Sequence record: LC494302.1
Source of the DNA: Escherichia phage SP27
DNA: 64,000 nt
Strand: one strand, 5' to 3'
Shown: positions 6,750 through 37,207 of the stretch, piece after piece
How positions within the stretch are numbered: position 1 is the first letter of the stretch
Layout: each line of letters begins with the position of its first letter
Made by a program: the position numbers and the translations under genes
The notes under the pieces: model-generated
The model's input: the letters and a program-made list of their open reading frames with translations, nothing else
Told to the model about the DNA's origin: nothing
Databases searched by the model: none

Positions 6750-7090
6750 GTATATTTTCGGTTTATATAGTAAACGTCAGTAAAGATGGTAGTTTAATTG
6801 AATTTGATGTAGTTGATAACAATGATAATTCATATGGTATTAAGGTACAGGACAATGATGTACAGTTCAGTACAAGGACAAATTTTGAGAATCCAGTCCA
6901 AGTTCCGAATTTCATAGAAGATGAAGCTGCACGATTCCAATACGAAACGGCATATGACAATGTACATATGCATATTATTATGCAAACGAGTTTAGTTCAA
7001 TTAGTTCCTTTGTTCAGACAAAATATATATGTACATGAAGTGTCGATTAATGGCATTCAAAGTTCCGTTTTGTTCGGTACAAATATGTAA
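6746..7090 (+). CDS. divergent FQxS-family member
   Basis: ORF (ATGA overlap); degenerate motif EDEAARFQYETAYD. Confidence 0.6.
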   Translation: MSIFSVYIVNVSKDGSLIEFDVVDNNDNSYGIKVQDNDVQFSTRTNFENPVQVPNFIEDEAARFQYETAYDNVHMHIIMQTSLVQLVPLFRQNIYVHEVSINGIQSSVLFGTNM

Positions 7091-7100
7091 GGAAAGTACA

Positions 7101-7652
7101 ATGAGTTCAATGAGTTTATTAGATACATTAGAAAAAGACAGAAGTGCAATTAAGCGTTTAAAAGAGCAAGTACAAAAGATTGTATACAACGTTGATAAGT
7201 TTGAAGTCCCAGGAAGATTTGGTGATATTTCCCATACGGAGATCAAATCCCTTAAGTCAGATTTGTTGATTAAAAATAAAAATGGGTTGATTTTAGTTTT
7301 GAGTTCAGATATGATGGGGGCAACACATAGTTATAATGCAGTATCGGTGCGTTCAGAGTGTGAAGGTATATATCTATCACAGGGTTTCAATAGCGAGACA
7401 CAGGTTTGTTTTTGTGATGCAGTACATGACCCTATGAAGTTCACGAGAAGTGAAGCCCAAGCGTTATTAGAGCTATCAGACGAGAGTTTGTTTCAGTACA
7501 GTACAATGTATGACAATGATAAGCTTCGTTGTATGTACGCTGTAAAGCATTATACACATGAGTTCTCTGGATTTGCATACCTTTTAGTTAGAACCAATAC
7601 CAGATATATTGATATGTTAGAAGATTACATCGATAAAGTTGTTAATGTATGA
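7101..7652 (+). CDS. FQxS-motif paralog family member
   Basis: ATG 7101 after RBS AAGGAAAG (longer ORF from 7029 overlaps upstream gene); motif DESLFQYSTMYD. Confidence 0.65.
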   Translation: MSSMSLLDTLEKDRSAIKRLKEQVQKIVYNVDKFEVPGRFGDISHTEIKSLKSDLLIKNKNGLILVLSSDMMGATHSYNAVSVRSECEGIYLSQGFNSETQVCFCDAVHDPMKFTRSEAQALLELSDESLFQYSTMYDNDKLRCMYAVKHYTHEFSGFAYLLVRTNTRYIDMLEDYIDKVVNV

Positions 7653-7674
7653 TGTATGATTATGTGATGGGATA

Positions 7675-7842
7675 ATGCTGATGAAAGAGTTATTTGAAGA
7701 TCAGTTCAATGCATATGTGGATAATATTCTTTATTCCAGTCGTGCCAGTCAACGAGGAAATCGTGCTTACAACATAGATTACCTATTAACGGTGCTGAGT
7801 TCACAGTACACCTACGCTGTACAGAGGACATATTATGAATAA
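7675..7842 (+). CDS. possible small protein (55 aa)
   Basis: ORF below the 60-aa track cutoff filling an otherwise empty gap; stop overlaps next start. Confidence 0.3.
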   Translation: MLMKELFEDQFNAYVDNILYSSRASQRGNRAYNIDYLLTVLSSQYTYAVQRTYYE

Positions 7843-8038
7843 TTTTAGAGATGTTGCTAAGGAGAAGTTCAAGTGCAGTTTAGATTACGGTTTAAATGAT
7901 TTTCTTACATGCACAATGTACAGGAATGATGATTATGAGCAATCCGTAATTTCGTTGCACAGATATTTCGAAATAATTTACGCAAGATATCTTAGAAGGT
8001 TAGATGGGATAGGGGATTGGAATTATGATTACGTTTGA
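7835..8038 (+). CDS. hypothetical small protein
   Basis: 67-aa ORF. Confidence 0.45.
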   Translation: MNNFRDVAKEKFKCSLDYGLNDFLTCTMYRNDDYEQSVISLHRYFEIIYARYLRRLDGIGDWNYDYV

Positions 8039-8234
8039 AGAGCCGGAAGTGTTAAGTTCGCATAGTATTAAGGGTTTTGAATACATGATGGATTTGATTT
8101 TGAAGGATACATATTTGGTTCAGAGTGTAGATAATACGGTACACCGAGTATTGAATTTATACGAGATGACGAGTCGAAGGCTTTGTGCTATGAAAAGGAT
8201 TGAAGAAATCAAGCTTTCTAGGCTGAATAAATAG
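8025..8234 (+). CDS. hypothetical small protein
   Basis: 69-aa ORF overlapping upstream gene end. Confidence 0.45.
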   Translation: MITFEEPEVLSSHSIKGFEYMMDLILKDTYLVQSVDNTVHRVLNLYEMTSRRLCAMKRIEEIKLSRLNK

Positions 8235-8433
8235 AGACGTTTCATTTTTACAGGCCGCTGGGGGGGGTCAAAAAAATTTCCGCTGAAAAACATGCTAAGG
8301 TATATGTTTAATATAAAGTTTTATATTGTGTTTTTCAGAGTACAGTTCATGTTTCCTGAAACAAAAAATACCCCGCCCCCGCAACGTGCTCCTTATATTG
8401 GAGTTTACCTTATTAATTATAGTAGAGATTAAG
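8235..8433. other. structured intergenic spacer with G-tract, C-tract and inverted repeat
   Basis: GCCGCTGGGGGGGG (~8262-8277), CCCCGCCCCCGC (~8377-8388); 10-bp inverted repeat CTGAAAAACA/TGTTTTTCAG. Confidence 0.5.
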
Positions 8434-8811
8434 ATGGAAATAAAATATAATGAATTTTGTGCAAGGACATGGATGTACACTGGTGAGTTAGTTACGCACT
8501 CTAACTTATACAAGGGTGATTTAAACTACGCTAGGGACAAGATTTTAAAGTACTGGAATGCTGACTTTTATTTGATGGATTTTAGTACTGGGTTTCATGG
8601 GATATCTATCGAGATGCCGGACTATACAGTACTTGATGATGCTGCACTGTTCCAGGAGGCATTAGTATTTGATAAGAAGTACATCTGTACATTAGAAGAG
8701 ATGATTGAATTACAGCGTAGAATTAAATGTATTCACAGGGAATGTATAGATATCTGGTGCAGTACTGGTGAGGCCGATTTCTGGAAATTTTTTAATCTAG
8801 GAGAAGAGTGA
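8434..8811 (+). CDS. FQxS-family member, tandem trio copy 1
   Basis: ATG 8434; motif MPDYTVLDDAALFQEALVFDKKYICT. Confidence 0.7.
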   Translation: MEIKYNEFCARTWMYTGELVTHSNLYKGDLNYARDKILKYWNADFYLMDFSTGFHGISIEMPDYTVLDDAALFQEALVFDKKYICTLEEMIELQRRIKCIHRECIDIWCSTGEADFWKFFNLGEE

Positions 8812-9167
8812 TGGAATTTGATTTTTTAATATCAGTACATACTTTCAAGCACAGTTATCAGTACTTTTGTAATTTAAACAAAGGTGATTTAATGCACAGT
8901 GCGAATGAGTATATTCATTACACTCAGGGTAAATTTACATTCATTGATTACAGTTCATTACAGTATCCACACCAAGATATGCCGGACTATACATTAATGG
9001 ATACCGCAGAACTATTCCAAGAATCATTAGTATTTGATAAGAAGTACTTGTGTACATTTGAAGAAGTTATTGCAATACAAAATGAAATGAAAGAGTATGC
9101 TGCTTTGCATAAACCCAATTCAAGTATTAATCAAGAATACAAATTCAATTTAGGAATTCAAGAATGA
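8808..9167 (+). CDS. FQxS-family member, tandem trio copy 2
   Basis: ATGA overlap; motif MPDYTLMDTAELFQESLVFDKKYLCT. Confidence 0.7.
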   Translation: MMEFDFLISVHTFKHSYQYFCNLNKGDLMHSANEYIHYTQGKFTFIDYSSLQYPHQDMPDYTLMDTAELFQESLVFDKKYLCTFEEVIAIQNEMKEYAALHKPNSSINQEYKFNLGIQE

Positions 9168-9523
9168 CATATGATTATTCTATGTACTATTATAAGTTAC
9201 CTAAAGGATGGGACTTGTGCTGTAATCTTATTAAGGGCGACTCGGAACATGAGTTGAGTTTATATATGCATTACAAAGATTCTTGTTTTAAATTTATTCA
9301 TGTATCACATGACGACTATGACTATGAATCTGAGAGTCTTATAGATTATACAGTACTGGACGATGGCGAACTATTTCAGGCTGCATTAGTGTTTGATAAG
9401 AATAAGTACTCCTGTACATTTGAAGAAATGGTTTCTTTGCAAAATGAAATGAAGAGATTTGAAAAAGAAAACGTATTTAATCCATCCCCATCAAGAACGA
9501 ATAATTATTATTTCAATATATGA
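9164..9523 (+). CDS. FQxS-family member, tandem trio copy 3
   Basis: ATGA overlap; motif DYTVLDDGELFQAALVFDKNKYSCT. Confidence 0.7.
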   Translation: MTYDYSMYYYKLPKGWDLCCNLIKGDSEHELSLYMHYKDSCFKFIHVSHDDYDYESESLIDYTVLDDGELFQAALVFDKNKYSCTFEEMVSLQNEMKRFEKENVFNPSPSRTNNYYFNI

Positions 9524-9532
9524 GATTATAAA

Positions 9533-10024
9533 ATGACATTACAGAGTTCATTGGAAAAAGCAAAGAAGATTCATGAGTACATGAATATGGCAAAAGAAGG
9601 TTCAGTTTACGGTGTTTTCAAAGACACAAGTACTCAATATTATGTACCGGATAACCTCCTTTATAATGACTGCTCAGATACAGAAACGTGCGTACTGGAT
9701 ACAGAAACGTGTGTACTGGATACCGACCCTAATGATTATGAATGCTACATTAATATGCATAATGAGTACATGGTCTATATTAATGATACAGATACCATCA
9801 ACAGTACTGACAGCGATTCCAATGACATTATAATTCCGAGTGAAGTACTGGAAGGTCCGTGGGATAGTGAAGAGTATTACTTCCAACAAAGTACTGTATA
9901 TGATAATGAAGTACTTGATGTTATTATAATTATGTGGTACTTTAAAAGTATTGGTTCTGGGAACTTCTATTTCGATTACAAATACGTAAAGAAAACTGTA
10001 GATAACGGTATTAACAGGGGTTGA
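9533..10024 (+). CDS. FQxS-family member, quintet copy 1 (MSLQSAL N-terminus, WYFK C-terminus)
   Basis: motifs VLEGPWDSEEYYFQQSTVYDNEVLDVIIIMWYFKSIGS; contains in-frame 21-bp tandem repeat. Confidence 0.7.
   Translation: MTLQSSLEKAKKIHEYMNMAKEGSVYGVFKDTSTQYYVPDNLLYNDCSDTETCVLDTETCVLDTDPNDYECYINMHNEYMVYINDTDTINSTDSDSNDIIIPSEVLEGPWDSEEYYFQQSTVYDNEVLDVIIIMWYFKSIGSGNFYFDYKYVKKTVDNGINRG
9677..9718 (+). repeat. 21-bp tandem repeat (2 units, 1 mismatch) inside CDS
   Basis: GATACAGAAACGTGCGTACTG / GATACAGAAACGTGTGTACTG, encoding DTETCVL twice. Confidence 0.85.
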
Positions 10025-10025
10025 A

Positions 10026-10496
10026 ATGAGTTTAGAAAGAGCATTAGAGATTGCGAAGTTAATTGATTTATGCAGCAAAGAAATTGTAGCAAATTGTCTT
10101 AATGGATATCTATTCAAGGAAGGTAAATCTTATTGTCGAATGAGATACGATGACAGTAGTGAGTACATTCACATGTATGAAGAAAACTTAGATTCTTCTG
10201 AAACAACACTCAATGGGTGTGATGTTAATTTGGAAGATAATTACATGTACTTCTGTCGTGATGCTGATATTTTAATACAAGATTCTGACATTATATCTGG
10301 TGCAGCAGAGAAACATCTTCCGTATTCAGTACTGGATAATGACTGGGGAAGTGAAGAGTTCTACTTCCAGCAGAATACTATCTACGAGGAATATGTGCTT
10401 GACAAGCTTGTCATTCTGTGGTACTTTAATAATACCGATTGTCCTAGCTTCTATCTGGACTTGGATCTACTACGAGTTATTAAAGAGGATATATGA
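10026..10496 (+). CDS. FQxS-family member, quintet copy 2
   Basis: motif DNDWGSEEFYFQQNTIYEEYVLDKLVILWYF. Confidence 0.7.
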   Translation: MSLERALEIAKLIDLCSKEIVANCLNGYLFKEGKSYCRMRYDDSSEYIHMYEENLDSSETTLNGCDVNLEDNYMYFCRDADILIQDSDIISGAAEKHLPYSVLDNDWGSEEFYFQQNTIYEEYVLDKLVILWYFNNTDCPSFYLDLDLLRVIKEDI

Positions 10497-10936
10497 GTTT
10501 AGCAAGTGCACTTAAACTGGCACACAAAATACATCACTTCCACGATAACATAAAAAGTGGTTTCTATGGTGATAAAGTAAGTGCATTTGGTAATGAGTAT
10601 TATCTATCAGGTATAAAGACATACTCTGATGATATTTTACTTATGGGCCATGATAAAGACAATACTATACAGTACTCTTCATGTAGTCAATATACTAGTT
10701 TTTTTGTATATATTCCAGGTACTAAGATTACGTTTGACACATCAAATACACCTGTTGACTTCGGGGTACTTGATGGCCCGTGGGGTACTGAAGAGTATTA
10801 CTTCCAACAGAGTCTTATTTTTAACCAAGAAATGCTTGATTCCTTGGTTGTTTTGTGGTACTTTAAGGAATTGAAGTTTGAACCATTTTTTCTTGACTGG
10901 GGAGCATGTGAATATTTAAGTACAGGGGATTTGTAA
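10493..10936 (+). CDS. FQxS-family member, quintet copy 3
   Basis: motif DGPWGTEEYYFQQSLIFNQEMLDSLVVLWYFK. Confidence 0.7.
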   Translation: MSLASALKLAHKIHHFHDNIKSGFYGDKVSAFGNEYYLSGIKTYSDDILLMGHDKDNTIQYSSCSQYTSFFVYIPGTKITFDTSNTPVDFGVLDGPWGTEEYYFQQSLIFNQEMLDSLVVLWYFKELKFEPFFLDWGACEYLSTGDL

Positions 10937-11427
10937 TGTCGTTACAAAGTGCATTGAAAGAAGCAAAGAAGATTCATGAGTACATGATTATGGTACAGGA
11001 AGGTTCAGTACCTGGGGTGTATAAAACATCTGATACTGAATTTTTTGTAAAAGACCGTGACGATTATGACGAGTCCGAGATATGTGCAGAAACATTAGTA
11101 CTGCACACTGATACTGGTGACAGTGATAACTGTGAATATCATATGTACAATCAGTACATTAGTTATTGCCGTAATGAAGATATTACCATCTACAACACAG
11201 ATAGTGATGCTGATGACACTATCATTCCTTATTCAGTACTGGAAGGACCGTGGGATAGTGAAGAATATTACTTCCAGAATAGTACGTTGTACAATGAAGA
11301 AGAACTGGATGTTATTGTGATTATGTGGTACTTTAAAAGTATTGGTTCTGATAGTTTCTATTTCGATTATGAATACGTAGAGAATACTGTAGGGGAAGAT
11401 AATGTCATTACAAAGTGCACTGGATAA
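10936..11427 (+). CDS. FQxS-family member, quintet copy 4
   Basis: motif EGPWDSEEYYFQNSTLYNEEELDVIVIMWYFKSIGS. Confidence 0.7.
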   Translation: MSLQSALKEAKKIHEYMIMVQEGSVPGVYKTSDTEFFVKDRDDYDESEICAETLVLHTDTGDSDNCEYHMYNQYISYCRNEDITIYNTDSDADDTIIPYSVLEGPWDSEEYYFQNSTLYNEEELDVIVIMWYFKSIGSDSFYFDYEYVENTVGEDNVITKCTG

Positions 11428-11845
11428 AGCAAAAGAACTACAGGTATATATTGAAGATATCAAGGCTGGGAAGTTCGAAGAAGTATACAAAGCCGAGAAT
11501 GGTAACTACTACAAGGATAGTGATTTTACCACAACTACAGTTATTCTTGGGCTGAATTCCAAAAGTCCCGCAGATTTTTCACAATACAATCCAGATGCAG
11601 AATTTATCAGTTATGCTTATGGTGGTGAAATCCGTTTTTATAATCGCAGCAGACCTTTAAAATTGAACTTTGAAGTACTGAAAGGTCCGTGGGATAGTGA
11701 AGAGTATTACTTTCAGAATAGTACTTTGTATGATGATGAAGTACTAGATACTTTAGTTATTATGTGGTACTTTAAAAGTATTGATAGTACAAGATTTTAT
11801 TTGGATTATGAATATGTACGTGAAGCATATAAGGGCAAACGATGA
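11402..11845 (+). CDS. FQxS-family member, quintet copy 5
   Basis: motif KGPWDSEEYYFQNSTLYDDEVLDTLVIMWYFKSIDS. Confidence 0.7.
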   Translation: MSLQSALDKAKELQVYIEDIKAGKFEEVYKAENGNYYKDSDFTTTTVILGLNSKSPADFSQYNPDAEFISYAYGGEIRFYNRSRPLKLNFEVLKGPWDSEEYYFQNSTLYDDEVLDTLVIMWYFKSIDSTRFYLDYEYVREAYKGKR

Positions 11846-12156
11846 AATTCTTATACAGTATTCAGTACATTCCTGGTACAATTAGTTTAATGTATTTCTT
11901 CGATCATGATAATTTCCAGCACCTTGCCGTTAGAAGATGTAATGAATCTTTAATGATTGAATATCTTCACGATTGTGATTATATTCCTGACTTCCTTGAA
12001 TGTGATTACAGAGATGATCATGAAACATTTCTTTTTCAGGAATCACTTGTATGGGATAAGAGAATTAATTTTTATGCTTTACTTGAGATACAAAAACAAG
12101 TGAAGTACTACTGGGATTACTTAATTACCCAAGAATATATAGAGATTGAAATATAA
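11842..12156 (+). CDS. FQxS-motif paralog family member
   Basis: motif DHETFLFQESLVWDKR. Confidence 0.65.
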   Translation: MKFLYSIQYIPGTISLMYFFDHDNFQHLAVRRCNESLMIEYLHDCDYIPDFLECDYRDDHETFLFQESLVWDKRINFYALLEIQKQVKYYWDYLITQEYIEIEI

Positions 12157-12629
12157 TGTACGAAAGTGATCTTAAGCACGCTGAGGAATTAGTTAATATA
12201 GTAAAGTTCTTTCAAAATAATGTAAAGTACTTAGACGACAAAGGGGCATATATTAGTACTATAAGTGTTGGTACAGATATTCTAGGATTAGGTAATGAAT
12301 ATAAGTACGAGTCCCATGATTATGATTTGGAATTCAAGTACTTCGAATGGAATCCTGGAACTTTCTATTCAATCGATGAAAGTGGGAAATATTTTGAATT
12401 CACCGAAGAAGACGTACTATTCTTAAATTCAGAAGATGCTTACTTCCAGTACAGTACTATATACCCAAATAGTGCATTAAGAGCTTTAGTAGTTTTTAAT
12501 GCATTTCTGAAAGAGAACTTTAATAATTCTATATTCATTGATTTAAATTATGTATATGAACTAAATCAGGTGATATATATGGAGTCCAGAAAAAATGAGT
12601 TACGAAAGTGCAATCAAGAAAGCAAATGA
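12156..12629 (+). CDS. FQxS-motif paralog family member
   Basis: motif NSEDAYFQYSTIYPN. Confidence 0.65.
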   Translation: MYESDLKHAEELVNIVKFFQNNVKYLDDKGAYISTISVGTDILGLGNEYKYESHDYDLEFKYFEWNPGTFYSIDESGKYFEFTEEDVLFLNSEDAYFQYSTIYPNSALRALVVFNAFLKENFNNSIFIDLNYVYELNQVIYMESRKNELRKCNQESK

Positions 12630-13041
12630 TATTCTAAAAGTTGTTAAGTTCTTCAAAGAAAATCCTGAATACGTAGATGATGAACGAAGAGAAGTTTCTA
12701 ATGGCACGAAGATTACAATTGATTCTTTATTTGACACTAGCAACAACAACTGTAGTACTATTGAATTAGCATACGATTATATTTCATTGAACAGAAAATA
12801 TGATGAAGTTACGATAGAGCGTCATGAGAATGAAGAATCTTTTAAAATTTCTGATATTTTATCTCTGAGTACAGAAGAAGGGTACTTCCAGGGAAGTACT
12901 GTTTATAATGAAGGAACACTAGACAATCTATGTACATTTAGTGTACTATATCAGAAGTCAGTACTGGATATATTTTATCTAGACACTGAAAAACTTGATA
13001 GGTTAGTTGATTTCGTTACTATAGAAGAGGCATCCGTTTGA
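12595..13041 (+). CDS. FQxS-motif paralog family member
   Basis: motif STEEGYFQGSTVYNEGTLD. Confidence 0.65.
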   Translation: MSYESAIKKANDILKVVKFFKENPEYVDDERREVSNGTKITIDSLFDTSNNNCSTIELAYDYISLNRKYDEVTIERHENEESFKISDILSLSTEEGYFQGSTVYNEGTLDNLCTFSVLYQKSVLDIFYLDTEKLDRLVDFVTIEEASV

Positions 13042-13574
13042 GAAAAATTAACATTAATGATTATGATGCATTACAAGATTTATCAAAAAAGATTCGCACT
13101 ATCGTACCAGTACTGAAGAAATGCAGTACTGGATTAATCGATCCTAGTACTGTTGTTAATGAGAAGTACAATTTTCATTATGTATTACAGGGTACTGGGG
13201 CATTCCAGAAGTGTGAGGTGCGTGAGAAACACGTAATTGATACATCATTGTTTTCTATTGGTGCACCTATGTCGAATAATACTATTTTCCTGGATGACGC
13301 AGGAAATATTCAACAATTAACATTTAAGAAAAGGAAAAAGAACAATAACATTGGTGTGTACGCGATGAAGTGGGGTCAACCTGATTTGAAGCGTGAAATT
13401 CACATCCCTAAGTACAATTACAATTCATTTGAAGAACAGTGCTTTCAACTATCGTGTACTGACCCTGACTATGCTATCATTCAGTTCTATATGGAATTGC
13501 AGATAGCATTTAACAGTAATTTGTATATTAACTTATTGGCGATTAACATTGATGAAGTATTCAAAAACATTTAA
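13038..13574 (+). CDS. divergent FQxS-family member
   Basis: motif SFEEQCFQLSCTDPD. Confidence 0.6.
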   Translation: MRKININDYDALQDLSKKIRTIVPVLKKCSTGLIDPSTVVNEKYNFHYVLQGTGAFQKCEVREKHVIDTSLFSIGAPMSNNTIFLDDAGNIQQLTFKKRKKNNNIGVYAMKWGQPDLKREIHIPKYNYNSFEEQCFQLSCTDPDYAIIQFYMELQIAFNSNLYINLLAINIDEVFKNI

Positions 13575-13770
13575 TCGAATTGAATACATGAGAACTGTGA
13601 GTGCAGTGTGGGACATATGGTTCACTACTAAACCAAAAATGGATTACCATGACTTTAAGCTCTTGTTCTTCGTTGGCTCTAACAAACAGGATGTTGCAAT
13701 GAAGGGTTATATTCAGCACTTACAGGAACTAATCCAGAAGAGAATATATGAAAATAATAGACCAAAATGA
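13552..13770 (+). CDS. small protein, family B
   Basis: motif LLFFVGSNKQDVAMKGYIQHL; start 13552 or 13588 uncertain. Confidence 0.5.
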   Translation: MKYSKTFNRIEYMRTVSAVWDIWFTTKPKMDYHDFKLLFFVGSNKQDVAMKGYIQHLQELIQKRIYENNRPK

Positions 13771-13939
13771 CATTGCTAAACTATTCAATATATATTCTAC
13801 TAGAATGATGCAAACAGACTCATATAGTACTGAATTCAAAGAGTTGAAAGTACTGATGTACTTAGGAACCCAATACCAAGAACAAGTTATTTTAGAATAT
13901 ATTAATTCGTTGAAGAAGGATATCCGTTATGTACGATGA
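13748..13939 (+). CDS. small protein, family B
   Basis: motif VLMYLGTQYQEQVILEYINSL. Confidence 0.5.
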   Translation: MKIIDQNDIAKLFNIYSTRMMQTDSYSTEFKELKVLMYLGTQYQEQVILEYINSLKKDIRYVR

Positions 13940-14489
13940 TTTAGATCTTGCGTTTGAACGTATGGTAATTTTAATGCAATGCAATGAAATGCATGAAACA
14001 ATCCGTCGCACCAAAGGGATTGAATATACAAGTAAACTATTCTCATACGAAAGTCGTCGAGGGATGGATCATTTTTACTGCACTGATTGTTCAAAGTTTT
14101 CAGTACTGAAATATTATCATCCTACTGTTTCCAATAATAGTTTAATATCCACATATGACGGTGATCTGTTTAGTGTAATGTATGACACATTACATCCATC
14201 AATTTCAATCTATAAAGATTGCGATAGTAGTTTATCGTATATAATTGAAGATTACTTATCTCCTAATACTGAAGAGAATATTTTTCAGAACAGTGTGTTG
14301 CATGATGAATTAAGTATAAAATGCATCTATATGTTCAATAAGTTAAAAGAGTACGCCGATAATAATTACTTCATTGATGATTTAGCGGTATTGTCTGTTT
14401 CCGTTTTTAATACAAATGATATTGATATGAAATACTATAATGAGATTTGTAAAGTACATAATATGTATAAGGAACTATTATGCCAATAA
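13929..14489 (+). CDS. FQxS-motif paralog family member
   Basis: motif NTEENIFQNSVLHDE. Confidence 0.65.
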   Translation: MYDDLDLAFERMVILMQCNEMHETIRRTKGIEYTSKLFSYESRRGMDHFYCTDCSKFSVLKYYHPTVSNNSLISTYDGDLFSVMYDTLHPSISIYKDCDSSLSYIIEDYLSPNTEENIFQNSVLHDELSIKCIYMFNKLKEYADNNYFIDDLAVLSVSVFNTNDIDMKYYNEICKVHNMYKELLCQ

Positions 14490-15082
14490 ATGCAAATAAA
14501 TGTTGTAGTGCAGATGTGCATTTGTTTTTTAAGAAATTAGTAAATGATATTATCTATATGCAAGAAATCATTTATCACAAAAGAATGGACTTAGAAAAAG
14601 CATTAGTTCAGTTCTCTTTTATGCTGGATGGGATTATTACTCTAGATGGTGATGGATTGCGTATAGCATTTGACGGTAATTCAAATAGGGTTTTCTATTG
14701 GATGAATAATAAATTATGTTCCTCAATTTGCCGCACTTTTTATAACCCTATTTCGGACTTATATCAATTGGTGTATTCTAAAGGTGCAGTAGAAGCATCA
14801 TATGGTGATAGTTATGCCCTAGGAAAGAGTATTCCATATATGCAATCATTTGATATTGAATTAGTCAGTACTGATGAAGATGCAATGTTCACAAATGATT
14901 TAACGATGGAACGTGAATCTGCAATGAGATATATTACAAATTCTATGCATACATTCTTTCAACGAGTAGAATTTGATAATGTATATATAGCAAATGTAAA
15001 TATTTTTACTGACCTGTGTCAGTACTTGAGAAGTGTTTGTGATTTTGATGAAAGCTATTGTAAGCTTTATACTGAGGTATAA
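14480..15082 (+). CDS. hypothetical protein (possible degenerate FQxS member)
   Basis: 200-aa ORF; only a weak DEDAMFTNDL match. Confidence 0.55.
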   Translation: MPINANKCCSADVHLFFKKLVNDIIYMQEIIYHKRMDLEKALVQFSFMLDGIITLDGDGLRIAFDGNSNRVFYWMNNKLCSSICRTFYNPISDLYQLVYSKGAVEASYGDSYALGKSIPYMQSFDIELVSTDEDAMFTNDLTMERESAMRYITNSMHTFFQRVEFDNVYIANVNIFTDLCQYLRSVCDFDESYCKLYTEV

Positions 15083-15087
15083 AACAA

Positions 15088-15450
15088 ATGAACACATTAA
15101 GTATTACATACTATACAACTAAAAAATTAGTTACTTGTTTAATATCATTGAAGACAAACCATGATGATATGTTTGATATGGCTGCATATGAATTAGAATT
15201 ATCAGAAGATGGCTTCAAGAGCTATGAAGTATATAGCTATGTTCGTGAAGATGTAATTGACACTACACTAATGCAAGAGGATGAGTTATTCCAAGAAAGT
15301 TTAGTATGGGATAATAAGTACGATTGTAACTTTGATTTCTTATGTTTAATCCAGAAAGAAATGAAAAGAATCTTTGATAATTATCCAGTGAAGAGATTGA
15401 GTACTGGACCGGAGCAGTACAGGAGAATTTTATTCCGTTATGAAGACTGA
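15088..15450 (+). CDS. FQxS-motif paralog family member
   Basis: motif MQEDELFQESLVWDNKYDC. Confidence 0.65.
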   Translation: MNTLSITYYTTKKLVTCLISLKTNHDDMFDMAAYELELSEDGFKSYEVYSYVREDVIDTTLMQEDELFQESLVWDNKYDCNFDFLCLIQKEMKRIFDNYPVKRLSTGPEQYRRILFRYED

Positions 15451-15775
15451 ATTAGTGAAAGTAATGTACGCTACTCATATTAAACTACTACTTGTGAAAT
15501 TTGATTATAATAAAAAACATAATGATTTCTATACTTTAATTCGTGATGAAAATACATTCTCCTTGCGATGCAACAATATACCGTTGAAGATAAATGATTT
15601 TACTTCACTTGACGAGGGTGAATTATTTCAAGAATCATTAGTTTTTAATAGTAATATAAAAATTGATATAGAAGTTATTAAAAAATACCAGATTTTATTG
15701 AACAAAATTATGAATTGTTATCCATGTGAAATAGGTGGTCATATGCAGTTCAAATCAAAAATGTATGAATTATGA
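15440..15775 (+). CDS. FQxS-motif paralog family member
   Basis: motif LDEGELFQESLVFNSN. Confidence 0.65.
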   Translation: MKTELVKVMYATHIKLLLVKFDYNKKHNDFYTLIRDENTFSLRCNNIPLKINDFTSLDEGELFQESLVFNSNIKIDIEVIKKYQILLNKIMNCYPCEIGGHMQFKSKMYEL

Positions 15776-15782
15776 GGTTTAT

Positions 15783-16319
15783 ATGTTAGATGAAAAAATG
15801 AACAATGGAACACAATATAATCATCTTAAGTTAGATACATTCGAATCAGCTATCAGTACTGCACAAGATATAATTGATATTATCAAGTTCATTAAAGAAA
15901 ATAAGTTCAAATGTTTGAAAATACTAAATCGTTCAATGTACCGTGATAACAATATTCATGTATCAGTACGTAGACCGAAAGATAAAGAAAGTGGGAGAGA
16001 TTTCTATAACAACAGTGAGCAGTTCGAATGTGAATATGATCCAGAATTCAGAGGCGGTTTCATGTGTTACAGTATAAAGGATACCTCACACATTGAGATA
16101 CGTTCATCGAAAGGTGGCATACGTACATTAGAGTTCATTGATATAGTTTTAAATCAGGAATACTACTTTCAACTATCATTATTGTTTCCTGCATACGATT
16201 TAGGAGTTCTATTCATGTATAAGTACTTTTATGAGCACTGGAATGAAGACTTCTATCTGGACTTAGAAGATTACCAATTAGTTTGGAAAGAAATGGTAGA
16301 ACTTCGCAATCCCTCTTGA
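15783..16319 (+). CDS. FQxS-motif paralog family member
   Basis: ATG 15783 after GAGG; motif NQEYYFQLSLLFPAYD. Confidence 0.65.
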   Translation: MLDEKMNNGTQYNHLKLDTFESAISTAQDIIDIIKFIKENKFKCLKILNRSMYRDNNIHVSVRRPKDKESGRDFYNNSEQFECEYDPEFRGGFMCYSIKDTSHIEIRSSKGGIRTLEFIDIVLNQEYYFQLSLLFPAYDLGVLFMYKYFYEHWNEDFYLDLEDYQLVWKEMVELRNPS

Positions 16320-16368
16320 CACCCACCGATTCTTTGTGATATAATCCCTTTATATTAATTGTAAAGGG
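16316..16368 (+). promoter_or_regulatory. sigma70-like promoter with extended -10 and leader hairpin
   Basis: TTGACA (16316-16321), 18-nt spacer, TG-n-TATAAT (16337-16345); hairpin CCCTTTA...TAAAGGG (16346-16368). Confidence 0.6.
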
Positions 16369-16378
16369 TTATAACACA

Positions 16379-20165: not shown

Positions 20166-20186
20166 AGACCCTTATGGGTCTTTTTG
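20166..20186 (+). terminator. intrinsic terminator
   Basis: stem AGACCC/GGGTCT, loop TTAT, then TTTTT. Confidence 0.7.
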
Positions 20187-20196
20187 TGTTTATGTC

Positions 20197-20225
20197 TTTA
20201 CAGTAGCATTCAGATGTGTTATAAT
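20197..20225 (+). promoter_or_regulatory. sigma70-like promoter with extended -10
   Basis: TTTACA (20197-20202), 17-nt spacer, TG-n-TATAAT (20217-20225); RBS AGGAGAAG before ATG 20253. Confidence 0.5.
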
Positions 20226-20252
20226 CACTTTTAATAGAGGATAGGAGAAGAT

Positions 20253-21400: not shown

Positions 21401-21965
21401 TTATATGACAGAACGCCATCAGTTATTATATGATATCAGTACAAAAATGTTATCAATTGTTAGTAGTGCAAAAGAAATTGAAAAACAATACCTCATCCGT
21501 GATGTAGCAATTTCATCTAAATGTTGGTCCAATGAATATTACGATCACGGTATTCTTACTATTTCTGGGGCTAGAAATATTTGTATTGTAAAAAATAAAA
21601 ATAAAAGTAATGAAGAGTGTGAGATTATAACCGATATACAAATTAAGGATGATGGAAGTTTTTCACACCACCCATTCCATATTAGTACTATTGGTGTTTT
21701 ATATAATATTAAAGTACTATTCGGTGATGAAGAGTATGTGTTAAAATCTATCAATCCAGAATCAAGTACAGTTGAAGAAGAACTGTTCCAGATGAGCACT
21801 GTTATACCTGAAGAGGTTCTTAGTACTGTTATTTTTTGTAGTTTAATTTATCATGAATACAAAAAGTACCAGTTCGATTTCCACATGTTAGGAACATACA
21901 TCTTCAATAATTTGAATGTAGATCGTTTAACAGCATTAAATGCAGCAATGGATAAGGTGCTATAA
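21387..21965 (+). CDS. FQxS-motif paralog family member
   Basis: motif TVEEELFQMSTVIPEE. Confidence 0.65.
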   Translation: MNAYSYMTERHQLLYDISTKMLSIVSSAKEIEKQYLIRDVAISSKCWSNEYYDHGILTISGARNICIVKNKNKSNEECEIITDIQIKDDGSFSHHPFHISTIGVLYNIKVLFGDEEYVLKSINPESSTVEEELFQMSTVIPEEVLSTVIFCSLIYHEYKKYQFDFHMLGTYIFNNLNVDRLTALNAAMDKVL

Positions 21966-22393
21966 TGACAAGAGATGATTGTTTGTACATATGGGATATA
22001 ATTGAAACTACACTTTCAAATCCAGAAAATTATAAAACAAAAAAAAGACAACGACACAAAATATGGATAGATTTGTTCGTTGAGGGCATACACGCAGTGA
22101 CTATTTGGGATTCACCGAGGGCATCATCATCTACTCTGTTGGACAATGAATGCATTGATTGCATTAATTCCACTTTTCATCTCTACGGTACTACAATTTT
22201 TGGTACATTTCTGGATATTGAAAGTAAAGATGATATTGATTCACTTGCGTTACAATACCAAGTACTATATAATACTAAATTAATTTACGATTTAGTACTA
22301 GCTTCTTATGTGTATAAATTAATGATGAAATATAATCATATTTCTGTTTCAGTTTATACTAAGGATATTCTTTCATTAAGAGACAAAACATGA
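21965..22393 (+). CDS. hypothetical protein (possible degenerate FQxS member)
   Basis: 142-aa ORF; weak LALQYQVLYN match. Confidence 0.55.
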   Translation: MTRDDCLYIWDIIETTLSNPENYKTKKRQRHKIWIDLFVEGIHAVTIWDSPRASSSTLLDNECIDCINSTFHLYGTTIFGTFLDIESKDDIDSLALQYQVLYNTKLIYDLVLASYVYKLMMKYNHISVSVYTKDILSLRDKT

Positions 22394-22899
22394 GTTTATT
22401 AAATGCACGCGAATTGGTTGAGATGTATGAGATTTTGTCTTCATATAAAAATTCTCCAAAAGATGTAATTCTAAACAAAAAGTTCCATGTCAGTGTTGAA
22501 CATATAACAAATATAGATATGATTTCTTTGGTGGAAAGTAATAAGTCAGGTCTGGAGCGTGATATCATGCGTTTGATTTATATTCCTAAACCATCATATA
22601 CTAATGATAGTACTATTAGCAATGAGACATTCATGTATAGTCCTGGTACGGATTCTACTATAGTATCGCTGTCCAATAAATCAATGGATACTTTCCAATT
22701 CATCTATACCAGTACTGATAACATTGAAGAAATTGAATTTCAAAACAATACATTAAGTCCATGTAGTAGTGTTATAACCTTTATGTCATATCTATGGTCA
22801 ACTAAAACAAGTGCTGTTGTATATAGTTCAAATTATACACAAGATAGTATTGTTGAATCATATAAAGTTCTAAAGGAATACTATGAAAATAACAAATGA
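22390..22899 (+). CDS. divergent FQxS-family member
   Basis: motif EEIEFQNNTLSP. Confidence 0.6.
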   Translation: MSLLNARELVEMYEILSSYKNSPKDVILNKKFHVSVEHITNIDMISLVESNKSGLERDIMRLIYIPKPSYTNDSTISNETFMYSPGTDSTIVSLSNKSMDTFQFIYTSTDNIEEIEFQNNTLSPCSSVITFMSYLWSTKTSAVVYSSNYTQDSIVESYKVLKEYYENNK

Positions 22900-23464
22900 T
22901 TTTATTAAAAGTGTAGTACACCCTATGCTTAGTATTATGAAAAAAATACAGAATCTACCGGAAGATAACGATTACAAGTTTAATCGTTTTGATTCAGATG
23001 TGTTTTGTATTGAAATTGAAATTAATAACAATCGTAATTTACATTTAAAATTCAAAGAATCTTCGAGTCCGTACTACAACTTTGATATGAATTTTAAAAT
23101 AGATACTGACATTGAAGAAAACGTAATATCAAATCATACTAGCAAAAATGGTTTTATGCATAGAACTACTATGTACAATAATAAAAATAGTATTATATCT
23201 AAATGGAATCAACAATTCACTAAAATTTGTGAAATTGAATATAATGATTTTGGTAAAGAACATTACTTTCAGTTAAGTACAATTCATGAACTTCCACCAT
23301 ATGATTATGTTAAAACATGGTTTGATATTCATAATATAATTGATGATGCAATCAAACTTCCATTTGGTGTGTCAATATCATATACTGCTCCTAAAACATT
23401 TGTTTTTACTGAAGATATGATTATGAAAAAGATATGGGCAATCATCCCACTTATGATGGATTAA
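22883..23464 (+). CDS. FQxS-motif paralog family member
   Basis: motif GKEHYFQLSTIHE. Confidence 0.65.
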   Translation: MKITNDFIKSVVHPMLSIMKKIQNLPEDNDYKFNRFDSDVFCIEIEINNNRNLHLKFKESSSPYYNFDMNFKIDTDIEENVISNHTSKNGFMHRTTMYNNKNSIISKWNQQFTKICEIEYNDFGKEHYFQLSTIHELPPYDYVKTWFDIHNIIDDAIKLPFGVSISYTAPKTFVFTEDMIMKKIWAIIPLMMD

Positions 23465-23470
23465 ATTTGT

Positions 23471-23496
23471 ACCAGGGGTTGACTCTGGTTTTTTTG
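23471..23496 (+). terminator. possible intrinsic terminator
   Basis: short stem ACCAG/CTGGT followed by T7. Confidence 0.4.
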
Positions 23497-23525
23497 TATG
23501 ATACATTGTTCTCAAGGAGAATTTT

Positions 23526-24077
23526 ATGAACTACAATCATGATCTTTTTACATTATGTGCATCCAAATGTGTTGAAGGATGGGCAGATAAAATCAATATC
23601 ATAATTCATCGATATCTCGTCTTTAGTTCCCGTGCACGAAGTGAGGGGGCTATGGATTTCAAATATACACTATCTATTGATGGTGTAACTATCCATGCAG
23701 ACGAAGAACGTCTGAACATTAATTTGTATGATTCCTGTGTATTTGCTATTCACCAAAAGATGGGGAAAGGATGGGGTTGTAATAACATTAACTCCAAAGC
23801 TATCTTTTGGGTTGGTCACCATCAGACAGTACTTGATCCTTCAATCAAATCTAATCTTTTATCCGATAATATGGTTTATGATTTATTGTACTCCGAAGAA
23901 CAACATTTTCAGTTAAGTACATTGCATGTTCTGGCACAGTACGAGGATTGTTACAAAACATTAGAACTATGCCATTCCCTTGAACTTAAAGATAAATTAA
24001 TACAAGTTTACCCTTCATTCTTTCATGAAGAAGTCCAAAGTACACTAGATCATATTTTATATGGATACGATAAATGA
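23526..24077 (+). CDS. FQxS-motif paralog family member
   Basis: motif SEEQHFQLSTLHV. Confidence 0.65.
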   Translation: MNYNHDLFTLCASKCVEGWADKINIIIHRYLVFSSRARSEGAMDFKYTLSIDGVTIHADEERLNINLYDSCVFAIHQKMGKGWGCNNINSKAIFWVGHHQTVLDPSIKSNLLSDNMVYDLLYSEEQHFQLSTLHVLAQYEDCYKTLELCHSLELKDKLIQVYPSFFHEEVQSTLDHILYGYDK

Positions 24078-24676
24078 GAAAAAGTTATCAAGAAGCTATT
24101 GACTTAATTCGTGAAGTTATCAAGGTGGCTCCTGCTGCTATTGAGTTCAAGAAGTCCATATACAAGAAGTATGGGTCAATGTCGAGTATGTGCTTTCAAA
24201 AGAAACGTAGAGCATTCACTACCCAGTACTGGAATGATTCTATCATCCTGAGCAATGAGACTCAGCGTATTTTAACACTAGAATCTGAACCTAATGAGTA
24301 CGGGGAAGGAAACATTTGTGTACCTGATTATGATGAAATTAACTTCAACTGCGGTGATTTTGAAACAACATTATTACTTCATGAGGGTTATCCAGAAGGT
24401 GATGTATTAGCTGAATACAATCCAAAAACTAAAATTCTCAAAAGAGGAATTCAGTTCACTATTAATAACAAAGATGATGTTGAAGCAGCACTGATGCAAC
24501 TGAGTACAAGTGAACCTATCACTATTAGTGTAGAAGAGTTATGGGGAATTATTTCAGTACTCAATGAGTGCTATAAAGTAAAATCATTGCGTAATCACAC
24601 CCTTATATTGCATACTAATATGGCAAATATAAAATGTAAGCACATTCAAGAAATGGTGGTTCCAGATGGACTTTAA
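24074..24676 (+). CDS. divergent FQxS-family member
   Basis: motif VEAALMQLSTSEP. Confidence 0.55.
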   Translation: MRKSYQEAIDLIREVIKVAPAAIEFKKSIYKKYGSMSSMCFQKKRRAFTTQYWNDSIILSNETQRILTLESEPNEYGEGNICVPDYDEINFNCGDFETTLLLHEGYPEGDVLAEYNPKTKILKRGIQFTINNKDDVEAALMQLSTSEPITISVEELWGIISVLNECYKVKSLRNHTLILHTNMANIKCKHIQEMVVPDGL

Positions 24677-25250
24677 AGAAATTGAAAGTAAATTAAAGTA
24701 CTTCAAAGATATCAAACTTCTTTGGGAAAAGTATAAAATTGATTACAATTTCAGTGATGATGAGACAATAAAATACATTGAGATTAATATCAAAATCAAG
24801 TTCAAGAATAATAATTATGGTGAAGTAAGCTTAAATCATGCTGGTATATCACTCAAGGACTATGATGGTTCAACACTCGCATATTTCGACTTCACACCAG
24901 AACCAGGTGAAACACTACTTAGTGAGATAAATTCCTATGACATGGAAGTGTTCGGCGGGAATCCGTTACTGTTCCGACTTTCTGAAGAGTGGAGTGAAGA
25001 ATACTACACTTACAAAGATGGTGTAGTACTTGACATTCATGGAGAAGTTGTGAATGACTTGGAAGAACGTTTGTTCCAAGAATTGTGTGTTTCAAATACT
25101 TCATATGCATACAATCATATCCTTGACATGTTTGATTTATATAGTAAAATAGATGCTGAAATGAATGCACATGGTATTCATTACCTTACAATTAACGACT
25201 ATGCTCAACTCGAAACCGCTGTGAAAGCATTGACTAAAGTACTGAAATAG
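24666..25250 (+). CDS. divergent FQxS-family member
   Basis: motif LEERLFQELCVS. Confidence 0.6.
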   Translation: MDFKEIESKLKYFKDIKLLWEKYKIDYNFSDDETIKYIEINIKIKFKNNNYGEVSLNHAGISLKDYDGSTLAYFDFTPEPGETLLSEINSYDMEVFGGNPLLFRLSEEWSEEYYTYKDGVVLDIHGEVVNDLEERLFQELCVSNTSYAYNHILDMFDLYSKIDAEMNAHGIHYLTINDYAQLETAVKALTKVLK

Positions 25251-25259
25251 GAATGAAAT

Positions 25260-25673
25260 ATGAAACTGTATCATGCGAGTACTGTAAAAATTGATAACTT
25301 TTATATCCCGTATGGTGGCCTTCATATGGGAGGTAAACACAGTGCTTTAGAAGCTGCCTTACGCAAGCTGAGAAGCCCACTAAACGTTGTTGACGCATGT
25401 ACAGTATACTTGCATACCTTAGAAGTTGATGTTGATAACGTGCTTCTGTGTGAAGATTTAGGCAGTGATGATGAGTGGCGTTCACTTATTGAGAATTGCA
25501 CGGCTCAAGGTTATGATGCTGTTCAGTACAAAAATGATTACGAGCCAGACAATGTTCCTAGCTTTATGATTTGGGATACATCTAAAATTCGTATTATTGA
25601 AGTTGATGCGATGCATATGGATGAAGCTGAAATGATCATCGAAGATTTCCTTGATGAATATGAAGGTGTATAA
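25260..25673 (+). CDS. hypothetical protein, compositionally distinct from neighbours
   Basis: 137-aa ORF with RBS; visibly GC-richer; three shadow minus-strand ORFs cluster here. Confidence 0.6.
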   Translation: MKLYHASTVKIDNFYIPYGGLHMGGKHSALEAALRKLRSPLNVVDACTVYLHTLEVDVDNVLLCEDLGSDDEWRSLIENCTAQGYDAVQYKNDYEPDNVPSFMIWDTSKIRIIEVDAMHMDEAEMIIEDFLDEYEGV

Positions 25674-26191
25674 TGATTGAACCTATGACAGTACTAGCAC
25701 GTACTAAATTATTATTGAAGATTGCTGAAATATTCACTGTTCTTATGTACAATAATCAAGACATAACTGACTTAGGTATTAAGCAACCGTGGCAAATTAC
25801 AAAGTTCACGGCGTTCCACCGATTGTCATATAATGGTGAAACTGTTCTTGATTTTAATCCAAAAGCCACGTTCGTGAATTACGCTGCATTATATGGATGT
25901 AATGGTGGATTAACAAATGACTTCACTGAAATAAAAGTACAATCAGAATCATTAGAATTTAATGACTTAATATATCCAGAATTTAAGTTAACAGAAGAAA
26001 CACTATTTCAGTACTCACTAATTATAAAAGATGTATATGATCTTGAGTACTACAAAGAGTTAGTAGATATTTTTAAGAATACTCGACTTTCAAAAGATAT
26101 TGTGATATTCTGGTATGTTGAGTATGTTACAGAGGAATTGCTAGAAGAATTTCTTCTAAATATGACAGCTATAAAGGAGAAGTTATGTTAG
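25673..26191 (+). CDS. FQxS-motif paralog family member
   Basis: motif TEETLFQYSLIIKD. Confidence 0.65.
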   Translation: MIEPMTVLARTKLLLKIAEIFTVLMYNNQDITDLGIKQPWQITKFTAFHRLSYNGETVLDFNPKATFVNYAALYGCNGGLTNDFTEIKVQSESLEFNDLIYPEFKLTEETLFQYSLIIKDVYDLEYYKELVDIFKNTRLSKDIVIFWYVEYVTEELLEEFLLNMTAIKEKLC

Positions 26192-26658
26192 ATATTTTAG
26201 GAAACATCGACACTGCAAATTATTTTATTCAAGATGCATTGTTTAATACAGTACAACAAGGTTTAGAAGTTCACCACAATGTTTATCAGGGTGATGGATA
26301 TTTTGTTGATATTATCGAGACACGTAAAAATACATTTAATGTTAACATTACGACGCTTGGAAGACAGAACATTGCACGAATTTTAGTAAGTAAAGATGAA
26401 ATAGTACTGAGATACAGTGCTAAGTTTATGTTGACTTATAAGAAAAAAACTGATATGTTCAGTACTAATTTATTTGATGAGCCATTTGACCTTGAAGATA
26501 TTGAAGCTACTTTCTTTACTCAAAGTACTATGGTAAAATACACTGATGTTCAATTTTCTGCTGATGTAATGTCAGAAACATTACAAATGATCAAGGTATT
26601 ATTTTATGCATTTGAGCAATTTAGAGAAGAAAGAAACAAGGTTAACAACCACAGATGA
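26185..26658 (+). CDS. divergent FQxS-family member
   Basis: motif EATFFTQSTMV. Confidence 0.55.
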   Translation: MLDILGNIDTANYFIQDALFNTVQQGLEVHHNVYQGDGYFVDIIETRKNTFNVNITTLGRQNIARILVSKDEIVLRYSAKFMLTYKKKTDMFSTNLFDEPFDLEDIEATFFTQSTMVKYTDVQFSADVMSETLQMIKVLFYAFEQFREERNKVNNHR

Positions 26659-27019
26659 ACTAATAGAGGCGATCACTAAGGAGTCAAAATACCATAAAGG
26701 GATTCGTCTATACTTTATAGATACTGGTTCGATGGAAGGTACATACATTTATGGTTCACAATCGTTGTCTTATGATGCAATGCCAAATAAACATGTTAAA
26801 ATCTTTTTAGGTTCAAGTAATAAAACTTTCTTGACAATTAATGATAAAAACGTTATTATGAATTCGTTGGGTCATGATAAGGTGGAAATTGATCTAAACA
26901 CGCTGGAGGATATTGATTTTTTTCAATACGAGTGTTTAGGTGTTGACTTACATGGCATTAGTAGCGATATGATAAAATCATTAATCAAATATTTCGAAGG
27001 TGTTCATAAATGTATCTAA
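26606..27019 (+). CDS. divergent FQxS-family member
   Basis: motif EDIDFFQYECLG; start uncertain (53-nt overlap). Confidence 0.55.
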   Translation: MHLSNLEKKETRLTTTDELIEAITKESKYHKGIRLYFIDTGSMEGTYIYGSQSLSYDAMPNKHVKIFLGSSNKTFLTINDKNVIMNSLGHDKVEIDLNTLEDIDFFQYECLGVDLHGISSDMIKSLIKYFEGVHKCI

Positions 27020-34565: not shown

Positions 34566-34841
34566 ATGAATTATAAAGTTCTACAATATACATACAGTGT
34601 TTTGTTTGATTTACATCACAATGGAAGATATCTCAATACAATACGAGAAAACACATTCACTCATACTATCTGGATTAATCACTTAATAATGATACGTGAA
34701 TATTTTGTTAATAGTGAGATAATCATTCGTGGTAAAAAACAGAAGATAGAACAAGTTAATAGTTTTGGTGGTAAATTAGTACTATCATTTATAGATAGTA
34801 ATACTAATGAAAGATATAGTATAGATTTGGTGGACATATGA
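34566..34841 (+). CDS. small protein, family C
   Basis: about 90 aa; N-terminus MNYKVLQYTYSVLFDL. Confidence 0.6.
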   Translation: MNYKVLQYTYSVLFDLHHNGRYLNTIRENTFTHTIWINHLIMIREYFVNSEIIIRGKKQKIEQVNSFGGKLVLSFIDSNTNERYSIDLVDI

Positions 34842-35406: not shown

Positions 35407-35416
35407 GAGGTTACAT

Positions 35417-37149: not shown

Positions 37150-37207
37150 TTTAATTCATGATATAATAATGGGTAAGGAACAATAATTAACACAAGGAGT
37201 GTGTGAA

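Follow-up and report, generated by a model that had tools for sequence, protein, structure and literature searches.

The eight consecutive + strand genes at positions 8434–11845 of a 64,000-nucleotide stretch of Escherichia phage SP27 DNA (LC494302.1; the whole stretch is called here the window) form two adjacent blocks, a trio (T1 to T3) and a quintet (Q1 to Q5; Table 1). A first-pass annotation of the window had read these blocks as the products of recent duplication in situ. The comparison of the eight genes with one another and with their relatives in other phages refutes the recency of the duplications: the pattern is that of a multigene family of long standing that evolves by birth and death. 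Trio and quintet probably represent two ancient sub-families within a single large family of genes, restricted to RaK2-like jumbo phages, which we call the FQxS family.

Eight + strand open reading frames (ORFs) are present where they had been placed. At five of their seven junctions the stop codon abuts or overlaps the next start; the other two have gaps of 9 nt (T3/Q1) and 1 nt (Q1/Q2). BLASTP E-values of 1e-14 to 1e-24 among the trio and of 1e-14 to 1e-56 among the quintet indicate a similarity far above chance. In profile searches, trio proteins matched phrog_15629 over their full length (E 1.5e-54 to 8.4e-60) and quintet proteins matched phrog_9317 (E 4e-50 to 4e-65). Adjacent genes on the same strand, BLASTP homology and a common PHROG for each block support the tandem sub-families and their origin by duplication in situ. 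The short motifs on which that view was based are present in the genes; the N- and C-terminal strings quoted as common to the quintet fit Q1 and Q4 well, and Q2 and Q3 only loosely. The layout with conserved ends and a variable middle was also confirmed in the quintet, where about 25 N-terminal and about 45 C-terminal core residues are kept and the middles are 13–44% identical, with insertions and deletions (indels). The trio represents a short form of the protein (about 120 aa), and the quintet a long form (about 150–165 aa) with an additional N-terminal helix.

Two sets of observations bear on the age of the copies. First, the synonymous divergence (dS) between paralogs is 0.9 to more than 2.5, at or near saturation for every pair, with nucleotide identities of 47–72% and amino acid identities of 38–42% in the trio and 29–61% in the quintet. 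Second, all eight genes have one-to-one orthologs in phages BF17, 121Q and PBECO4, and the same holds for Turkey3 with the exception of Q1. These orthologs are mostly 85–100% identical at the amino acid level; the exceptions are Q5 (69% in BF17, 121Q and PBECO4), T1 and T3 (72% in Turkey3) and T2 (81% in 121Q). T1 is 90–92% identical to its orthologs in PBECO4, 121Q and BF17 (its start is annotated 13 codons further in for BF17 and 121Q), and T3 is 97–100% identical in the same three phages. The two allele types of Q5 differ by a dS of 0.7–0.8. Since paralog dS is at or near saturation and each copy has an ortholog of its own in most phages compared, the duplications are older than the spread of these phages.

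The ratio of nonsynonymous to synonymous divergence (dN/dS) between orthologs was 0.05–0.45 for all eight genes, and was lower in the cores than in the rest of the genes. In conclusion, purifying selection maintains every one of the eight copies, which are distinct working genes, not dosage copies. The pairwise comparison of nucleotide identities and dN/dS, which had been proposed as a check on recent duplication, returned instead old, separately maintained copies. The first-pass annotation would have been contradicted by blocks that are ancient and no more similar internally than to distant array members; the blocks are indeed old, and yet genes of the same block still resemble one another more than they resemble remote members of the array.

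A neighbour-joining (NJ) tree was built from 147 alignment columns of 37 family members. The quintet formed a clade with 70% bootstrap support, and Q1, Q4 and Q5 grouped together at 69%. The trio clade was recovered at 40%, and at 39% when its nearest relative, the gene at 15088–15450, was added; T2 and T3 grouped at 82%. Copies 4 and 5 of the quintet had been described as nearly identical over long stretches; their identity is in fact 44%, no identical run exceeds 16 aa (GPWDSEEYYFQNSTLY), and their grouping has a bootstrap value of 1%. The closest pair among the eight genes is Q1–Q4 (61% amino acid and 72% nucleotide identity, 96% bootstrap), and no closer pair was found by BLASTP anywhere in the window. 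At the DNA level, repeats between copies reach at most 209 nt, at 81% identity.

The eight genes belong to a much longer array. An iterative profile search seeded with the quintet gathered 37 + strand genes between positions 4 and 27507, the trio included, and a few further members were borderline. The core motif of the family is [ST]EEx[YFW]FQxS, with the fuller form [ST]-E-E-x-[YFW]-F-Q-x-S-[TL]-[ILV]-[YH] among database relatives, of which 146 out of 160 have FQx[SNTQ]. In an alignment of 37 long-form sequences, the core Phe and Gln were invariant, and one Glu and one Ser nearly so. PHROGs treats phrog_15629, phrog_9317, phrog_12674, phrog_13866 and phrog_34017 as separate families of unknown function; they are united here as one superfamily by profile search, by their common motif and by a similar predicted architecture. 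Database matches to the family amounted to 140 clusters among 1.84 billion representative proteins, and the trio and quintet sub-families were confined to the genus Asteriusvirus (35–36 of 50,697 phage records). A partial protein of 103 aa labelled Actinomadura adrarensis (P0165), encoded on a 563-bp contig, is 86% identical to T2 and most likely represents coliphage contamination of that assembly.

Region 8300–12200 of the window matched 35 phage records, all from Escherichia or Salmonella jumbo phages of about 310–386 kb, which belong to Asteriusvirus wherever they are classified; the window is Asteriusvirus (121Q/PBECO4-like) jumbo coliphage DNA, with a G+C content of 29–36%. The top match was BAU.Micro_ELP-22 (hereafter ELP-22; 98.2% nucleotide identity). 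Position 8300 of the window corresponds to 36,751 in ELP-22 and to 37,090 in fEgEco12, a phage whose ends have been mapped and whose direct terminal repeat is 20,993 bp long (PMC13070987). The locus therefore lies about 16 kb inward from the left terminal repeat. The whole family spans about 28 kb, roughly 27–56 kb from the left genome end, and begins at 27,489 in ELP-22.

Unequal recombination between paralogs had also been proposed for these genes. Natural variants document crossover products, and they contain no new copies of the eight genes. BF17, 121Q, Turkey3 and others (at least 7 of 20 listed records, judged by span lengths) carry 530–590 bp of extra DNA between T1 and T2. This insert encodes an ORF of 53–74 aa, the first 28 residues of which repeat the T2 N-terminus, and a 123-aa family member; it is bounded by an 85-bp direct repeat (about 96% identical), of which the window and PBECO4 have exactly one copy. 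A 28-kb metagenomic contig from a Turkey3-like phage (L006; Logan SRR27732228) carries a T1::T2 hybrid gene, in which the 5' part comes from T1 and the 3' part from T2, with the crossover within the common core LFQESLVFDKKY; compared with Turkey3, this contig lacks about 900 bp, including the 123-aa gene. In both Turkey3 and L006 the place of Q1 is occupied by a fourth trio-type gene (114 aa) and a 61-aa ORF. By tblastn, genomes have one to four places of the trio type and three to six of the quintet type: in the divergent phage A4, one gene is of the trio type and four are of the quintet type, and Turkey5, also divergent, has two trio-type and three or four distant quintet-type genes. On a smaller scale, the 21-nt unit repeated in the middle of Q1 is present in one or two copies among orthologs (P0008–P0010 and P0013 versus P0007, P0014 and P0016).

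Recombination between phages is visible in the window itself, which is a mosaic of BF17-like and Turkey3-like segments. In 200-nt windows, identity to BF17 is 98–100% from about 8900 to 11300, and identity to Turkey3 is 94–100% from 10014 to 12800, save for one 200-nt window at 85% (11100–11300); identity to BF17, 121Q and PBECO4 falls to 68–76% over Q5 and the next gene. The mapping of breakpoints suggested with the first-pass annotation located this lineage switch inside the conserved core of Q4 (Table 1). The gene that follows Q5 (11842–12156) is 97% identical to its Turkey3 counterpart and 68–69% identical to those of BF17, 121Q and PBECO4, and the next one (12156–12629) has an ortholog in Turkey3 only, the other phages compared having a different 102-aa gene at this place.

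The conserved ends of some quintet members are also more alike at synonymous positions than their middles. Among Q1, Q4 and Q5, dS is 0.5–0.64 in the core and saturated in the middle, and in the core the same codon is used at 23–27 of 31–34 identical residues, versus about 15 expected from codon usage. For the Q1–Q4 pair, the same codon is used at 46 of 57 positions in the ends and at 15 of 31 in the middle (Fisher p = 0.003). The lower synonymous divergence at the ends fits a partial homogenisation, as by partial gene conversion. A diversity-generating retroelement was considered as a source of the variable middles and rejected: no template/variable repeat pair was found in 8300–12700 (a reverse transcriptase gene was not searched for), and the middles differ by indels and at 56–87% of residues.

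The mosaic structure bears on an alternative origin, by which the blocks would have been assembled by cassette exchange between phages at the conserved cores, their members not being duplicated in place. The BF17-like and Turkey3-like segments, the alleles of Q5 and of the next genes that are just 69% identical, the trio-type gene at the place of Q1 in Turkey3, and Q1 and Q4 being sisters without being adjacent all agree with such a scheme. However, with both sub-families found in Asteriusvirus records only (35–36 of 50,697), any donor belongs to the same gene pool; allele exchange leaves the original rise of the paralogs unexplained; and the order Q1-Q2-Q3-Q4/5 is preserved even in the divergent phage A4. 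We consider cassette assembly unlikely as the origin of the blocks. Still less likely is that the trio and the quintet are recent in-place duplications, in which unequal recombination is still producing copies and copy number varies among near-identical phages. Tandem blocks in a single direction, the grouping of the quintet as a clade, relatives that carry products of unequal recombination and the 21-nt duplication that varies among orthologs are what such ongoing amplification would leave. Against it stand the synonymous divergence at or near saturation with 29–61% amino acid identity, the presence of the three plus five genes one for one in BF17, 121Q and PBECO4, the lack of any pair in the window closer than Q1–Q4, and the nature of the variants, which are deletions, fusions, or gains and losses of another family member and not new copies of the eight genes.

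The descent of the trio and the quintet as two old sub-families of the FQxS family is therefore preferred to recent amplification on the basis of dS at or near saturation and of the separate orthologs. Three points weigh against it or complicate it. First, the trio as a clade has a bootstrap support of just 40%. Second, Q1 and Q4 are sisters and are not neighbours, so that the history of duplication exceeds a simple copying of neighbours. Third, the low core dS, read from the alignment as conversion, could in part be due to constraint at the nucleotide level or to a weak alignment of the middles. The array evolves by birth and death, crossovers in the core between neighbouring paralogs fusing, deleting or adding genes. 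The greater likeness of Q1, Q4 and Q5 at their ends is probably maintained by short conversion-like tracts, alleles are exchanged when different phages recombine by homology, with breakpoints in the same conserved cores, and small slippage duplications change the variable middle.

AlphaFold2 models were obtained for one protein of each form. The Q4 model (pLDDT 86.8, pTM 0.82) consists of an N-terminal helix, a seven-stranded sheet that bears the variable part, then helices that carry the FQ motif and a hydrophobic MWYFK segment. The T2 model (pLDDT 85.2, pTM 0.83) has the same layout minus the N-terminal helix. In both, the core motif is predicted in a helix of the best-predicted part (pLDDT 95–97) and is followed by conserved hydrophobic residues; in Q4 the N-terminal segment is modelled as a 20-residue helix packed into the fold (pLDDT 93–96). 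No match to a known fold was found for proteins of the family, the structural relatives of which are in RaK2-like jumbo phages only. Pfam, NCBIfam, PADLOC and Rfam gave no matches for the eight proteins or the window. AcrIIA2, the sole match of a PDB sequence profile search, was rejected as not significant (E 0.54). The proteins are acidic, with a median pI of 4.7 and net charges of -20 to -27 for Q1, Q2 and Q4.

The internal protein (IP) loci of T4-like phages encode small acidic proteins with a conserved N-terminus and a variable body; the phage packages these proteins into its head, where the prohead protease processes them. The present genes resemble them in encoding small acidic proteins, in the conserved N-terminus and variable body of the quintet and in a locus that differs between related phages. 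One could thus propose that the proteins are packaged like T4 IPs, the N-terminus MSLQSAL..AK acting as a capsid-targeting signal and the variable rest as an injected anti-restriction payload. This is highly improbable: none of the 62 proteins of the phAPEC6 virion proteome is listed between gp347 and gp549 (PMC7247149), a stretch that includes the Q1 ortholog of that phage, gp442c. Unlike the targeting signal of an IP, moreover, the N-terminus is predicted to be an integral helix of the fold, and the trio lacks it.

The tobacco etch virus (TEV) protease recognises the pattern ExxYxQ↓(S/G), and the family core E-E-x-Y-F-Q-x-S could accordingly be a cleavage site or a degron for a glutamine-specific protease, the family being made of substrates or decoys. 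The conservation of FQx[SNTQ] in the database relatives and the sequence EEGYFQGS in several members agree with this proposal; the TEV-like pattern is found as STEEGYFQGST in the gene at 12595–13041, as EEYYFQ(Q/N)S in Q1, Q3, Q4 and Q5, and as EEFYFQQN in Q2. In the trio the core reads (A/E)LFQ(E/A)(A/S), without E at P6. We give this explanation very little credit, since the motif is predicted in a well-ordered helix, with conserved hydrophobic residues after it, which is typical of structural cores rather than exposed linkers (a prediction of the models only), and since no 3C-like or NIa-like protease was found among the window proteins scanned. Because of this helical placement in the models, the match to the TEV pattern is probably a structural coincidence.

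As to function, it is possible, and proposed here only tentatively, that the products are acidic, non-virion early proteins that form a host-takeover or counter-defence set, with a common scaffold and diversified surfaces. By this scheme the host sigma-70 polymerase would transcribe the genes soon after infection; all members would have in common a helical scaffold, conserved around the invariant Phe-Gln, and would differ in their beta-sheet surface, each paralog binding a different host or defence factor. Hints in this direction are the acidity of the proteins, the lack of any protein of this region in the phAPEC6 virion proteome, the restriction of structural relatives to RaK2-like jumbo phages, the small number of matching clusters (140), the genes near the array, and promoter-like motifs in the array and in the first 21 kb of ELP-22. 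The few gaps of the array (322–380, 16320–16378, 20166–20252 and 23465–23525) contain, as judged by eye, sigma-70-type promoter-like hexamers and terminator-like hairpins. In the gaps 20166–20252 and 23465–23525 the hairpins (AGACCCTTATGGGTCTTTTT; CCAGGGGTTGACTCTGGTTTTTTT) are immediately followed by the promoter-like hexamers, which suggests that the array may be cut into several operons. Genes downstream of the array encode a Dam methylase, a T4-type RNA ligase 1 (Rnl1), a polynucleotide kinase-phosphatase (PNKP) and a Sir2-family protein; Rnl1 and PNKP make up a tRNA-repair pair that counters anticodon nucleases.

Several points weigh against this functional proposal. The promoter-like motifs are putative, being consensus matches made by eye, and an automatic scan of 7000–13000 for promoters and terminators was not enriched relative to shuffled sequence. 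Proteins that are missing from a single virion proteome are not thereby proven to be missing from virions. Calculated gene-wide between orthologs, dN/dS stays below 1 and does not point to an arms race. Homologs of known role were not found, and literature searches yielded no functional or expression study of the family or of any Asteriusvirus early region; a comparative survey of jumbo phages does not mention the family.

Positions 1–21000 of the related genome ELP-22 agree in size and position with the 21-kb terminal repeat of fEgEco12. Almost every small gene there has a promoter-like element of its own, close to consensus (AGTACTTGCA or TTGACA, 17 nt, TATAAT), after which come a hairpin that is conserved (GGGGAGAA..GTTCTCCCC) and the ribosome-binding site. 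By eye, these first 21 kb match a consensus TTGCA/TTGACA-N17-TATAAT with a conserved GGGGAG…CTCCCC hairpin. From these matches, the region looks like a set of about 45 separate immediate-early transcription units.

Table 1. Positions of the eight genes, of sites within them and of other features of the window.
Feature	Position	Strand	Basis or remark
FQxS array, whole, one direction	4–27507	+	Iterative HMM search, alignment A1, motif census; at least 37 members
Non-coding gap before T1, 200 nt	8235–8433	+	Last sizeable gap ahead of about 22 tightly packed genes (8434–16319)
T1, trio gene 1, 125 aa, phrog_15629	8434–8811	+	phrog_15629 E 1.5e-54
Conserved core of T1, …DYTVLDDAALFQEALVFDKKYICT…	8611–8727	+	Repeat families D3, D5, D7; site of the T1::T2 crossover in L006
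T2, trio gene 2, 118–119 aa	8808–9167	+	ORF, phrog_15629 match
85-bp segment, 5' end of T2, single copy in window	8809–8893	+	Alignment with relatives
Cores of T2 and T3, homologous to that of T1	8976–9092; 9344–9453	+	Repeat families D3, D5, D7
T3, trio gene 3, 119 aa	9164–9523	+	ORF, phrog_15629 match
Q1, quintet gene 1, 163 aa, phrog_9317	9533–10024	+	Closest paralog is Q4
21-nt tandem duplication (TETCVLD twice), variable middle of Q1	9677–9723	+	TRF: period 21, 2.2 copies, 96% matches
Q2, 156 aa	10026–10496	+	ORF, phrog_9317; phage A4 ortholog 92% identical
Q3, 147 aa	10493–10936	+	ORF, phrog_9317; phage A4 ortholog 96% identical
Q4, 163 aa, net charge -27	10936–11427	+	ORF, phrog_9317 match
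Approximate lineage breakpoint in Q4 core	11270–11330	.	Left BF17-like, right Turkey3-like; 200-nt windows and column-by-column alignment
Q5, 147 aa, two deeply diverged alleles in the genus	11402–11845	+	Turkey3 97%; BF17/121Q/PBECO4 69%
Dam methylase, downstream of the array	32297–32818		
Rnl1 and PNKP, downstream of the array	40111–43009		
Sir2-family protein, downstream of the array	58142–58900		

Within the trio, T2 likely begins at position 8811, with an ATG that overlaps the stop codon of T1 (TGATG). From 8434 to 16319, all gaps between genes are shorter than 40 nt. Although the genome is otherwise AT-rich, the gap that precedes T1 contains a run of eight G (GCTGGGGGGGGTC) and, at a distance of 90 nt, a C-rich run (ACCCCGCCCCCGC); the two runs pair in the predicted fold of the 200-nt gap, and this fold is no better than those of shuffled sequences (z -1.18). 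Inside the FQxS array, four short genes (63–88 aa) occur in pairs at 918–1372 and 13549–13939, 12 kb apart; three of them are linked by BLAST at 33–37% identity, and the four have a '(Y/F)LGT..QE' segment in common. A further family of tandem small genes, encoding proteins of about 90–103 aa with 24–29% mutual identity, is found at 34566–38577 (for example 34566–34841, 34838–35104, 35095–35406, 35417–35728 and 35691–35975).

The multigene families MGF360/505 of African swine fever virus (ASFV) and the host-range families of poxviruses consist of diverged tandem paralogs near the genome ends, with a demonstrated role in host range or immune evasion. By analogy, they may be taken as the nearest conceptual parallel to the FQxS family. 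Likenesses are the many diverged, unidirectional tandem paralogs near a terminal repeat, and isolates that differ by gain, loss and fusion of genes through recombination. On the other hand, there is no kinship of sequence or fold, the host is a bacterium, and a role in host range or evasion is here inferred only. It is conceivable, although rather doubtful, that the FQxS family, which counts some 40 or more paralogs in each genome, is the counterpart of these families in bacterial viruses: an early arsenal in which each paralog would neutralise a different host defence or host factor by its variable beta-sheet face, and in which core recombination would shuffle and fuse members and swap them between co-infecting phages.

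Poxvirus K3L is amplified in accordion fashion. Accordion copies are new, essentially identical and act by dosage, whereas the eight genes studied here are old, 29–61% identical and individually conserved. What is shared is tandem change of copy number by recombination as an adaptive route, which is also reported for the SegB-driven amplification of counter-defence genes in phage T6 (PMC13096335).

A tandem gene array in coliphage 121Q was mentioned in one sentence by Hua et al. (2017, mBio; PMC5646251), so that arrays of this kind are already on record in the genus. It is the same kind of object in a phage of the same genus, and the orthologs of the eight genes are 121Q genes 365 and 368–374. 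That sentence offers neither coordinates nor a dating, does not define the family and names no motif or sub-families, and its wording 'very similar' does not suit the FQxS family, in which most pairs are 15–40% identical. It may equally mean the neighbouring array of about 28 genes of 65–90 aa (ELP-22 21.5–27.5 kb). This second array, unrelated to the FQxS family, lies directly upstream of it at 21506–27499 in ELP-22, and its members are mostly 30–55% identical to one another.

Duplication was thus not recent, contrary to the first claim, and the eight genes show a pattern that is ordinary for a multigene family; the larger family to which they belong is uncharacterised and of mild interest. 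It has been proposed that jumbo phages reached their size in part through tandem paralog arrays, and this locus provides a dated, concrete example, with an old expansion, retention of every copy and remodelling by crossovers in a short conserved core. Should the proteins prove to be a host-interaction or counter-defence set, the family would offer many inhibitors, so far untapped, with a fold for which no relative has been solved, and could help to explain the host range of Asteriusvirus phages considered for therapy.

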